The notes under the pieces: generated by a model
The model's input: only the letters and a program-made list of their open reading frames with translations
Database searches by the model: none
What the model was told of the DNA's origin: nothing
Part shown: in pieces, positions 31,371 to 35,749 of the stretch
Position numbering within the stretch: position 1 is the first letter of the stretch
Layout: every line of letters begins with the position of its first letter
Position numbers and translations under genes: made by a program
NCBI GenBank assembly: GCA_963711565.1
Contig: CAVQEQ010000001.1
Span: 608,001-672,000, forward strand
From: an uncultured delta proteobacterium
Lineage (GTDB): Bacteria; Desulfobacterota; Binatia; Binatales; Binataceae
DNA length: 64,000 nt
Reading direction: 5' to 3'

Positions 31371-32656
31371 ATGGTTGGCAGTACCCTTATAGTGGATACA
31401 GAAGCAAAAAGCGAAGCCGTCCTTTCGGAAATACCGGAGATCTCGCGCGAGGAACTCCGGCGCGGCTTCACGACCCGTCGCTCACGATCGTTGATGTCTT
31501 ACCCGCCGAGTCTTACGCTGCGGGGCACGTTCCAGGCGCGGTCAGCATTCCGCTCGAACTGGTCGCCAGCCGCGCGCCGGAACTTCTTCCCGATCACGCC
31601 GCGGAAATAGTTGTCTACTGCGGGAAGCTGACGTGCGACCGCAGCGAGCAGGCACTCGAGCAACTGCACAAACTCAGCTACTCGAATGTGCGCGACTATC
31701 GCGCCGGAATTGCCGACTGGGTGGAATCGGGGGAACCGACCGAGAGCATCGCTGAAGCCGCCTCCAAGCCGGATGCCGCGGCGGCGATTCTGGCAGGACC
31801 TCCGTTGACAGTTTCGCCCACCGGAGAAATCGGCCGACTCCCCGCACGCCTGTCGCAGATGCGTCGGTGGGACAACTCGGTGCTGGGCCTGGTTCAGCGG
31901 CAGTCCACTTTGCAGTTGTTCCTCCTCTGGCTCGCTATGATCCTGCTGTCCGGCGCCGGGTACTGGTTAGGTGCGCTGGCCGGCGAACACGGGCTGGTCG
32001 AGGCGGGCGTCCCGGTTGGCGCCGACCTGAAAGGTTTTGCCGGCGCGATTTATTTCAGCTTCGTAACCGCGACTTCCGTCGGTTATGGCGACATCGTTCC
32101 CGTCGGGTTCGCGCGCGCAATCGCGGTCGCGGAAGCAATCAGTGCGCTACTCATCTTCGGCGCGGTGGTCGCCAAGTTCGTTTCGCATCGGCAGGAAGAG
32201 CTGGTGCTCGAAATACACCGCGTCACGTTTGAAGAACGACTCGCTCGTGTCCAGACAAATTTCAGCATGGTGATTTCCGAACTACTGTCGATCCAGGCGA
32301 TGTGCGACGCACAGGCGCCGCTCAATGGAGTCGGCACGCGGTTGGACAGCGCGGCGCTGATCTTCCTCGGTGAGGTGCGAGCGATTCACGATCTCCTGTA
32401 TCAGCCGCGGCTGATCGTTGAGGAAGGCGTCCTGGCCACCATTCTCGCCCTCCTGGCCTCTGCGATGAACGTATTGTCGGAGCTCTTGAGTCACTTGCCG
32501 CCGACATTCGTGCGCTCACAGCCGTTGGAGATAGCGCTCGAGAACTTGACGCGCCTCGCTGGCGACATCTGCAGCACCTGCGTGCCTCACGAATATACAC
32601 CGCGGCTCGTATTCTGGATGGACCGCATCCAGACGACCGCGCGGAAAATCAAGTAA
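31371..32656 (+). CDS. Rhodanese-domain / 2-TM potassium channel fusion; 1-nt frameshift near 31460 (start uncertain)
   Basis: Frame of ORF 31356 gives EISREELRR; frame of ORF 31067 continues RLHDPSLTIVDVLP..GHVPGA..VYCGKLTCDRS..GIADW, then TM1, YFSFVTATSVGYGD and TM2. Confidence 0.82.
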
Positions 32657-32664
32657 GGCCGCGC

Positions 32665-34176
32665 ATGCCGCTCCCGAAGTTCGCAGATATCGTCGTCATC
32701 GGCGGCGGCACCGCTGGCGCGGCAATCGCGGGTCTGCTCGCAGAGCATTCCGAGCAGTCAGTGCTGTTGCTCGAGGCCGGTCCGGACTATGGTCCGTTCG
32801 CTGCGGGACGATGGCCCGCGGAGCTTACCGATGCGGGCGCGATACCCACCACGCACGACTGGGGCTACCACAGCGGCGAGCATTATGCGCCACGCGTGAT
32901 CGGCTACGAGCGCGCTCGCGTGATCGGCGGATGCTCGTCGCACAATGGATGCGCCGCGATCTGGGGCAGCCGCGTCGATTACGACGGATGGGCCGCGCTC
33001 GGAAATCCGGGATGGTCAACGGACGAACTGCGTCCGCTGTTTCGTGCCGCCGCCGACCGTCTGCGGGTCAGGATTCCCGAGCCGGGCGAGATAACTCCCT
33101 TCCAGCGCGCAACCTTGCGCGCCGCCGCCGAAGCCGGAATCCCGCGCGTAGCTGATCTCAACAATCTCGATGAGAACCTTGGGATGGCGCCGAGTCCGGC
33201 AAACATCGTGAACGGCGTTCGTTGGAACACCGCTTTCGCCTATCTCGATCCGGTCCGCGATCGATCAAATCTGACTATTGTCGGCAACTCGCCGTGCGAC
33301 CGCCTCGAAATCATCTCGGGACGCGTGAACGCCATAATCGTCGCTGGACGCGAAGGTCCGGTTCGCGTTGAGGCGGGACGAGTGATCGTGGCGGCGGGAA
33401 CCTACGGCTCTCCCGCGATTCTTCTGCGCTCAGGGATCGGCGATGCATCTGAACTGCACTCCGTCAGCATCGCGTCAACTCTCGACCTGCCCGGAGTCGG
33501 CCGCAACCTTCATGATCATCCGCGGGTTTCGCTGAGCTATGCGGGGACGCGCGAGCTCGAAGAGATGACGACCGCGTTTGCGCGCGACCATTGGATGCCG
33601 GAGGAGCAAACGATCGCCAAGGCGCAATCCTTGCGATGCACGCGAGCGTTTGATCTGCACATCTATCCGGTCGGCGGTCCCGACAACACAACGCCAACCG
33701 GATGGCGATGGACGATCGAAGTCGCGTGCATGACGCCACGCTCTCGCGGCGCGCTCAGGATTACGAGCGTGGACAGCGGCGTGCCTCCGATCATCGACCA
33801 TCGCTACTTGTCCGATCCCGAGGGCGAAGATTTGCATGTGCTCGCCGACGGCGTCGCGCTGGCTCGCGAGATAGCCGCGAGACCCGCGCTGTCCCGGCTT
33901 GTGGGTAAAAAGATTGCACCGGACAGCAGCGTCGCGACGCGCGACCCGCTCGAGACGTTCATCAGGGCCAATTGTCTCCACTACTACCATCCGGTGGGGA
34001 CGTGCATGATGGGCCCGGCGAGCGATCGTGCCGCCGTCGTCGATTCGCGCGGCAGAATTCACGGGCTCGACAACGCTTACGTCGCTGACGCATCGATTAT
34101 GCCGATCATACCTCGCGCGAACACCAACGTTCCGGCGCTGGTCGTCGGCGAGCGAATCGCGCGCTGGTTGTTTTGA
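32665..34176 (+). CDS. GMC-family FAD oxidoreductase (choline dehydrogenase-like)
   Basis: GGGTAG, LEAG, GGCSSHN, GVGRNLHDH, YYHPVGTC, DASIMP, NTN. Confidence 0.92.
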   Translation: MPLPKFADIVVIGGGTAGAAIAGLLAEHSEQSVLLLEAGPDYGPFAAGRWPAELTDAGAIPTTHDWGYHSGEHYAPRVIGYERARVIGGCSSHNGCAAIWGSRVDYDGWAALGNPGWSTDELRPLFRAAADRLRVRIPEPGEITPFQRATLRAAAEAGIPRVADLNNLDENLGMAPSPANIVNGVRWNTAFAYLDPVRDRSNLTIVGNSPCDRLEIISGRVNAIIVAGREGPVRVEAGRVIVAAGTYGSPAILLRSGIGDASELHSVSIASTLDLPGVGRNLHDHPRVSLSYAGTRELEEMTTAFARDHWMPEEQTIAKAQSLRCTRAFDLHIYPVGGPDNTTPTGWRWTIEVACMTPRSRGALRITSVDSGVPPIIDHRYLSDPEGEDLHVLADGVALAREIAARPALSRLVGKKIAPDSSVATRDPLETFIRANCLHYYHPVGTCMMGPASDRAAVVDSRGRIHGLDNAYVADASIMPIIPRANTNVPALVVGERIARWLF

Positions 34177-34292: not shown

Positions 34293-34735
34293 CTAACGGC
34301 GCTTCATCATGCGATGGTCAACGCGCGCAACCACCTTGCCATTCTGATTGATCAGCGTAGATCGGATCACGGCAAATACCATCGTGCCGGTACGGCCGGT
34401 TTTCTCGTAGATATCTTTCAGTTCGGACGACACGCGAATTGAGTCGCCAGCCGAATCGGCGCCTCAAGCTCGAAGTCGATTCCGCCCATGAGCCCGCCGC
34501 CGCCGAAGCGCGGGATTTGATCGAAAACTTTGTCTGCGTAGCGAAATGAGGCGACGAACGCCGGCGGAGCGATGATTTCACCGTATGGGCCCGCCTTGGC
34601 TGCCTCCGGATCGACGTACAACGGATTGTGCTCGCCGACTGCGGCACAGAAGCTGGCGATCCTTTCTGCCGTCACGAGGTAGGGCGCACCCGCCTCGAAA
34701 GTGGCGCCCATCAGTTTTAAGTCGTCGTGTCGCAT
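34293..34735 (-). CDS. MaoC/FAS1-like hot-dog dehydratase; 1-nt frameshift near 34450
   Basis: NPLYVDPEAAKAGPYGEIIAPP..PIR; after adding one base it continues GDSIRVSSELKDIYEKTGRTGTMVFAVIRSTLINQNGKVVA to TAG at 34293-34295. Confidence 0.82.
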
Positions 34736-34746
34736 CGTTCGACCAG

Positions 34747-35749
34747 TCAGATGCTTAACACCTTGGTTAAGAGGCCGGCCGTATGATCGCGAGCTGCCAG
34801 GTATTCTGCGAGGGTCCGGTCTACGAGTTCTGCCGCGCTTTGGATCCTATCTACGCCGGAGATCGAATGACCGGCGCTCCAGATGTCTTTGTAGCGCCGC
34901 GGTCCCTCGATTTCGGACTTACTGCTGAACTTTTTCGCAGCCTCTTCATTCGACAGGCGCGGCGGCAGCGTCGATGGATCGAGTCCCGCGGCAATCATTG
35001 AAGGCCGCAGCATGTTGGTGTCCAGGCCCGTGAATGCCTGGGTGAGCATCACGTCGTCCGTGCCCGACTCGACCAACATCTTCTTGTATCCCGGTGGCGC
35101 CATGCTCTCATGCGTCGCGATGAACTTCGTCCCCATGTAAGCAAGGTCGCAACCTAGAACCTCGGCAGCCCAGAGCGCATGACCGTCCGAGATTCCGCCG
35201 GCTGAGTACGATCGGTCCGGCGAACATCGCGCGCACTGCGCGGACGAAGGCTAGCGGATTGAGCCACCCGGTCTGCCCGCCCGCGCCCGCGGTCAGCAGG
35301 ATGAGGCCATCGACGCCCGCGACGATAGCTCTCTCAGTATGGTGAAGCGTCGCCACGTCCGCGAACACGATGCATCCAACGTCGTGCAGAGGTTTGATCG
35401 CTTCGGCGGGCGAGCCGACGCTCGTGATAACCATCTCGACACGATGCTTCACCAGCGCCTGCAGTTCGTCACGCATTTGCGCTCGTTTGATGATCAGGTT
35501 GGGGCAGAACGGTGCGGTAGGCCGATCGGCATTTTCGTCCGCCGCGCGGGCGAGATCACTTTTGATTTGTGTGAGCCATGCATCGACGCCCTCGATGGTT
35601 CGAGCATTAGCGAGCGGAAACGAACCGATCACACCCGCCTTGCATGCTGCTATTGCGAGATCAGGTCCAGAAACCGAGAGCATTGGAGCGGCGATCAATG
35701 GGAGCCGCAGCCGTTTCGCGATTTTATCCGTCAGACGATTCGACATCAT
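34747..35749 (-). CDS. Nitronate monooxygenase / FabK-like FMN enzyme; 1-nt insertion at about 35203
   Basis: LPLIAAPM, AGAGGQTG; removing one A gives GPIVLAGGISDG..YMGTKFIAT, joining ORFs 35108..35749 and 34747..35136. Confidence 0.85.

Follow-up and report, generated by a model that had tools for sequence, protein, structure and literature searches.

The window, by which we mean the whole stretch of 64,000 nucleotides analysed here, encodes a rhodanese domain fused to a potassium channel pore, and this fusion is real and no artefact. Judged from the sequences of its relatives, the family is very probably a selenocysteine-bearing variant of the two-transmembrane (2TM) K+ channels that is absent from the literature searched. 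We predict from sequence and structure models that the window protein is a two-helix K+ channel subunit, the Cys form of a likely selenocysteine (Sec) family, and that it would be gated by thiol or selenol chemistry, a prediction that we regard as evenly poised.

A rhodanese domain fused to a potassium channel pore

One open frame on the forward strand (31463-32656) encodes a rhodanese domain, an Ion_trans_2 pore, and a tail without a Pfam family, and it contains the motifs DVLP, GHVPGA, VYCGKLTCDRS, TATSVGYGD, and CSTC. A Pfam search placed both the rhodanese domain (PF00581, E 3.7e-13, 50 bits against a cut-off of 22.2) and the pore (PF07885, E 1.1e-12, 48 bits against a cut-off of 22.5) far over their cut-offs, and both domains occur in 69 of the best 120 homologues, the other 51 having the pore alone; the fusion proposed in the preliminary description is thereby borne out. 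The features of the gene and protein are as follows.

31371-31462, forward strand: N-terminal coding segment with the first rhodanese helix, starting at ATG 31371 or GTG 31392; in another frame in the window
31462-31463, forward strand: single-base assembly error; an extra C is present here in the contigs of 6/6 DNA runs from 3 studies
31463-31747, forward strand: remainder of the rhodanese domain (PF00581), predicted to be cytoplasmic; model pLDDT mostly above 88
31619-31621, forward strand: Cys89, the canonical rhodanese catalytic position; Cys in 138/138 loci and 88/88 full-length proteins
31634-31636, forward strand: Cys94 (TGC); TGA (predicted Sec) in most relatives
31637-31669, forward strand: site of a SECIS-type hairpin in TGA relatives, absent from the window copy (L032 fails the SECIS model)
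31748-31855, forward strand: flexible linker of varying length; pLDDT below 50 over most of residues 134-167
31856-31978, forward strand: slide-helix-like helix, then TM1 (model helices 168-182 and 185-208)
32027-32092, forward strand: pore helix and filter TSVGYGD, with Ser for the second Thr of TTVGYG
32111-32185, forward strand: TM2, with near-invariant Glu260; unbroken into the first tail helix (helix 253-318)
32186-32656, forward strand: cytoplasmic tail, about 155 aa in five helices; without a Pfam family or a clear fold match
32570-32581, forward strand: CxxC (CSTC), Cys406 and Cys409; the only two invariant columns among 143 sequences

In the window, the first 31 to 36 residues are out of frame with the rest; of the two candidate starts, GTG 31392 agrees with the starts in close relatives. 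We compared the window with contigs from six DNA runs, four from one study and two from two further studies. Because all six carry the extra C, and because a protein database holds an intact 433-aa form of the channel protein (P0003), the frameshift at 31462 is an assembly error and the sequenced populations carry an unbroken gene. Single run contigs bridge the rhodanese domain and the pore (one X4 contig over 31200-32143 and also an X6 contig), so there is no misjoin, and a fusion made by misjoining or by the frameshift is ruled out. The earlier view that the frameshift is harmless and did not create the fusion was thus correct, and the fusion also recurs elsewhere: 63 of 151 family genomes have a match at E below 1e-78 (counted by hand).

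The run contigs differ from the window at two further positions, 31468 (T>C in 6/6 runs) and 31887 (G>A in the main contigs of three runs, which gives Asp, as in P0003). Two RNA runs yielded one short contig each, one upstream and one downstream of the channel gene. Elsewhere in the window, a nitronate monooxygenase-like gene on the reverse strand (34747-35749) is split into two ORFs, 35108-35749 (PF03060) and then 34747-35136, and a MaoC-like ORF (34418-34735) has an odd end; these are possibly more single-base assembly errors like that at 31462.

The named relatives, Candidatus Binatus and Binataceae, come from soil; the distant named records, all of the short form as database proteins, are from NC10 and Acidobacteriota. 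At 50% identity, 109 representatives score at E up to 1e-30, some of them being rhodanese-only, and a single-protein query with the tail alone had no match in 400 other genomes sampled over the phylum.

An in-frame TGA in the rhodanese loop of most relatives

Many relatives are recorded in databases as channel-only proteins of about 260-340 aa. These short pore-only homologues start just past the second loop Cys and still hold the end of the rhodanese domain, and this led us to suspect a stop codon that is read as Sec. By our own count, 56 of the 63 matching family genomes have one TGA at the loop and seven have no stop there. From 110 collected genome loci we parsed 97, having dropped nine selA/selB loci and four partial ones; among the 72 that were non-redundant, the codon at Cys94 is TGA in 63 and TGC in 8, and one locus is frameshifted. 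Metagenomes gave 80 further loci with identity down to 39%, and the 70 that could be parsed comprise 63 with TGA, 4 with Cys, and 3 that were mis-parsed; the ten unparsed loci have a stop at the site in five (by eye), Cys in one, and the region missing in four. Position 94 is Ser or Gly in a few relatives, a point against the thiol or selenol chemistry predicted below. An in-frame UGA aligned to the Cys of homologues, by which bacterial selenoproteins are recognised, is therefore found in the family; by the same standard the window copy, with TGC and no passing hairpin, is a Cys homologue and not a selenoprotein.

The channel-only database records would also fit a reading in which the TGA is a true stop in the relatives, whose genes would be broken up or decayed, with the Cys forms as the sole real fusions. 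We consider this extremely unlikely. The same codon occupies one column over 126 loci, where it is aligned to Cys and followed by a hairpin, and the sequences indicate that the segment upstream of it is under purifying selection (dN/dS of 0.19 upstream and 0.14 downstream, a crude estimate). A protein broken at this codon would lose the closing helices and strand of its rhodanese fold. After the TGA, the earliest codon at which translation could restart lies at 11 different positions, and 23/126 loci have none. An alternative genetic code (TGA as Trp or Gly; code 4 or 25) was rejected, since TGA also terminates 48 of 116 complete TGA-type genes. W stands at this site in two database proteins, which resemble recoded gene calls; one of them adjoins a TGA locus on the tree. 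Two genomes carry a second, broken channel copy besides an intact TGA-type copy: G107 (L104, C1:173289-174012, Cys-type) and G046 (L094, C1:764541-765686).

A bacterial SECIS element is described as having a loop of 3-9 nt with a G, 16-37 nt from the UGA, and an energy of at most -7.5 kcal/mol (consensus as given in PMC13188914). A common hairpin, with the G at +22 invariant, spans +14 to +32 in the 63 TGA loci from genomes. Its partners pair in 85.5% of cells, compared with 29.5-47.6% when partners are slid, and its covariation score was matched by 0/500 shuffles, a control that relatedness inflates. Mean energy is -11.7 kcal/mol in the TGA loci and -6.0 kcal/mol in eight Cys forms. The hairpin gains only mild stability over synonymous shuffles (mean z -1.08 for TGA loci and -0.69 for Cys forms), and the former value is this small because the encoded amino acids themselves favour the hairpin. 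The SECIS model as coded here was passed by 115/126 TGA loci and 3/12 Cys loci, and the passing TGA loci mostly have the loop GGUC or GGUCG, 17-18 nt after the TGA. The coded model is loose and its background high: at any spacing, 89/250 ordinary TGA stops and 107/250 Cys codons of the window genome pass as well. Within 16-19 nt, a range picked after the data were seen, 108/126 TGA loci pass, compared with 14/250 stops and 32/250 Cys codons. The window copy has no hairpin that passes the coded consensus model. Judged from these aligned loci, the second loop residue in most relatives is very likely Sec. Gene callers break these genes at the TGA, which conceals the family in databases.

The window genome has tRNA-Sec, selA, and selB. 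With relatives judged by selA alone, 142 of 151 family genomes have it, including all 63 carriers of the channel; the gene is found in 0/9 selA-negative genomes, which as kin are not independent. Loss of the Sec machinery was rejected as the cause of the Cys form, as all seven Cys-type family genomes have selA. We built trees on the region downstream of the loop and hairpin. In a tree of 212 rows, the window copy groups with Cys forms in a clade of 69 rows (support 0.93); such forms are over-represented in protein databases, since TGA forms are cut short there. In a tree of 54 chosen rows, rooted on nine distant TGA loci, the window copy falls in a 12-row Cys clade (support 97), which itself sits in a 33-row clade (support 100) whose first branch is a TGA form, and the outer Binatia-level branches are all TGA forms except one pair. 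Because the Cys clade is nested among TGA forms, Sec is likely the ancestral state and the window copy a reversion to Cys. If so, the window lineage is a natural Sec-to-Cys revertant, and substitution in this direction is described as rare in bacteria in the cited part of PMC13188914. The 54-row tree holds at least four Sec/Cys changes (counted as fewest changes, with one fork left open), in genomes that retain selA.

Protein architecture and comparison with known proteins

The full-length AlphaFold2 model has a mean pLDDT of 88 and a pTM of 0.66. By sequence and model, the window protein has the 2TM K+ channel layout of TM1, pore helix, filter, and TM2 with the TxGYG signature. In K+ channels of this topology, four subunits build the pore; on this basis the rhodanese domain and the tail are predicted to be cytoplasmic. 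The rhodanese domain is predicted to keep its fold (model compared with 6mxv: Z 16.5, rmsd 1.6, 108 residues) and retains Cys at the first loop position, its sulfurtransferase activity being putative. Both cysteine motifs singled out in the preliminary description proved to be conserved, the loop through Cys89 in every locus and the tail through its invariant CxxC. TM2, in which Glu260 is Glu in 128/129 loci, is modelled as a single helix with the first tail helix up to residue 318. Modelled alone, the tail forms five helices and no strand (pLDDT 90, pTM 0.83); its best structure match has a Z of 12.5 (rmsd 3.0, 140 aligned) where the helical-bundle background is about 13, its best Foldseek match has an E of 0.014, and Atlas matches were all under 0.9. 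The window protein contains no RCK or cNMP-binding domain, as Pfam gives two domains and the tail model is all-helical. Conservation of His288 and His304 is about 90%, and the window copy has Ser304.

The core of TM1, pore helix, GYGD, and TM2 is shared with KcsA, MthK, and LctB-type 2TM channels (PF07885), and many relatives are labelled 'potassium channel LctB' by JGI. In sequence searches, the best PDB matches of the pore are to KcsA (E 1.2e-9), and Kir2 matches over a longer stretch than KcsA. A helix precedes TM1 in KirBac as it does in the window protein, and KirBac3.1 (1xl4) is the top channel fold match (Z 11.8, rmsd 2.5, 89 residues), with other channels within 1 Z. The cytoplasmic domain of Kir channels is a beta-sandwich, whereas the window tail is all-helical in the model. 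RCK/KTN domains are the commonest addition to 2TM channels according to the cited part of PMC2234077; in the window family, the N-terminal rhodanese domain and the 155-aa helical tail with CxxC stand in their place, and the filter is TSV/IGYG, unlike that of KcsA-type channels.

The filter bears on whether the pore is K+-selective or might instead pass cations less selectively, or conduct nothing and act as a sensor. Ser replaces the second Thr in 129/129 loci, at a position that we take to be equivalent to T442 of Shaker. The Shaker T442S substitution alters the order of open-state conductances and the selectivity of the open state, and yet T442S channels still work and have longer openings, as described in PMC2233792. 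With GYGD or GFGD kept throughout and the best sequence matches being KcsA and other K+ channels, we judge a pore that is not K+-selective to be very unlikely.

On the rhodanese side, the nearest known selenoprotein is TsoB (NF045694, rhodanese/DsbD fusion-like, rhodanese-like form 5), which has the motif UxxxxU in Table 1 of a 2026 catalogue of 119 prokaryotic selenoprotein families; that table includes five rhodanese forms and no channel (PMC13188914). As here, the chalcogen residues of TsoB are five apart and a second redox or membrane module is fused to the rhodanese; the window family differs in combining CxxxxU or CxxxxC with a K+ pore, where TsoB combines UxxxxU with a DsbD-like partner. 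The window protein reaches 40 bits with the NF045694 model against a cut-off of 805 (a weak domain match, E 1e-10), and by E-value no member of sequence set A2 is near that cut-off. Rhodanese-like selenoproteins of forms 1-4 (PF00581; NF041203) likewise share the rhodanese fold and carry Sec in the region of the loop, but their motifs are UxxS, UxxG, and CxU, and none is listed with a channel in the parts of the catalogue cited here (PMC13188914); with NF041203, the window protein scores 35 against a cut-off of 115. More broadly, NCBIfam holds no model whose cut-off the window family proteins reach, and the words channel and potassium are absent from the main texts of PMC13188914, BSepDB, and deep-Sep. 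No description of a rhodanese-gated K+ channel was found in the literature listings searched.

KefC and KefB offer a functional analogy, since they couple K+ movement to thiol status (parts of PMC10224563 and PMC3412212). KefC exchanges K+ for H+, carries a KTN domain, and senses glutathione adducts, and it has neither a GYG pore nor a rhodanese domain. Three more rhodanese domains of the window genome (C1:985030-985257, C3:754686-754997, and C4:1410615-1410863) have the YC-x4-C loop, which suggests that a two-Cys loop is the mark of a broader subfamily of rhodaneses. Phosphatases and arsenate reductases of the Cdc25/ACR2 type have the loop motif HCx5R. The loop of the window family is YC-x4-C/U, with D, T, P, or H at +6 and an Arg at +7 that is not kept in TGA forms, and on this sequence evidence a Cdc25/ACR2-type enzyme was rejected as unlikely.

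Predicted gating and gene context

We propose that the family may comprise widespread and overlooked selenoprotein ion channels in which a C-x4-U rhodanese sensor relays a sulfur or redox signal to the CxxC of a new helical gating domain, a proposal to which we give slightly less than even weight. The C-x4-U/C loop would react with reactive sulfur or an oxidant to form a persulfide, selenenylsulfide, or disulfide, and the flexibly tethered rhodanese domain would exchange with, or dock near, the CxxC of the tail. Because the tail forms one helix with TM2, it could then shift the inner gate and thereby alter K+ flux and membrane potential. In the window lineage, Cys in place of the likely Sec would keep the chemistry at a lower reactivity. 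A thiol relay appears the most economical reading since a C-x4-U loop on a flexible tether and an invariant CxxC continuous with the gate helix are both predicted to be cytoplasmic. Strong, though indirect, backing for a redox or thiol reading comes from the relatives, most of which have TGA followed by a SECIS-type hairpin at the second loop Cys. Sec occurs mostly at redox-active or metal-binding sites (stated in the cited part of PMC13188914).

If true, this would be a new gating mode beside RCK, cNMP, pH, and voltage, and in soil bacteria it would couple membrane potential directly to the status of reactive sulfur or selenium. The Cys form in the window would be the easier member of the family to study; being expressible without Sec machinery, it makes gating directly testable and comparable with the Sec form.

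The same residues might instead serve metals or metalloids, with the C-x4-U/C loop and the CxxC, perhaps together with His288 or His304, binding As(III), Hg(II), Cd, or Zn to gate the channel, or with the CxxC being a structural metal site. Four conserved thiol or selenol ligands and the broad retention of both His residues are consistent with this, as are a weak coevolution of M305 with T408, which puts His304 near the CxxC, and the several metal-handling selenoproteins in Table 1 of the catalogue (PMC13188914). The Ser at 304 in the window copy argues against it, and 81 neighbour ORFs include no ars, mer, or metal-efflux gene save one ArsR-methyltransferase and one OFeT; we hold metal gating to be unlikely, if a serious contender.

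It is quite unlikely, in our judgement, that the channel serves to anchor the rhodanese at the membrane as an active sulfur- or selenium-transferase, the pore being gated otherwise (by pH, lipid, voltage, or a partner of the tail). The retained fold and catalytic Cys and the long, disordered linker would suit such an enzyme, and rhodanese-tail coevolution is absent as a signal, with 11 of the top 100 coevolving pairs being rhodanese-tail, below the 23% share of all pairs, in an underpowered alignment (Neff about 98); this result also weighs against the thiol or selenol relay. The fusion and the CxxC are nevertheless kept together down to about 35-40% identity, which is a better fit to coupled functions than to a passive anchor.

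A GMC oxidoreductase gene (32665-34176, forward strand) starts 8 bases past the channel stop. Neither this gene nor the phosphoesterase gene that also neighbours the channel in the window lies beside any other locus (0/138), about half of these loci being less than 8 kb long; in run contigs of a close relative, the channel is followed by the GMC oxidoreductase in the same order as in the window. A conserved operon was rejected, as neighbour clusters follow genus-level synteny and no more. Across the family loci examined, no sulfur, selenium, or metal gene is conserved nearby; the neighbours thus single out no particular ligand, which counts against the thiol or selenol relay. Scattered sulfur or redox neighbours do occur (L127:3200-4930, L132:2-1426, L146:1-918, and L158:273-3269), comprising an upstream SulP permease for sulfate in two TGA loci, another rhodanese ORF, and a pyridine nucleotide-disulfide oxidoreductase, and these are too few for a pattern. 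An anti-phage role was rejected, with 0/50 members matching PADLOC and 1/50 touching HalA (E 1.5e-4).

The filter is degenerate (ASYGD) in two distant Cys-type homologues, P0141 and P0144, whose C-terminal extension resembles by eye the start of a peroxiredoxin-like domain and adds another hint of redox coupling.
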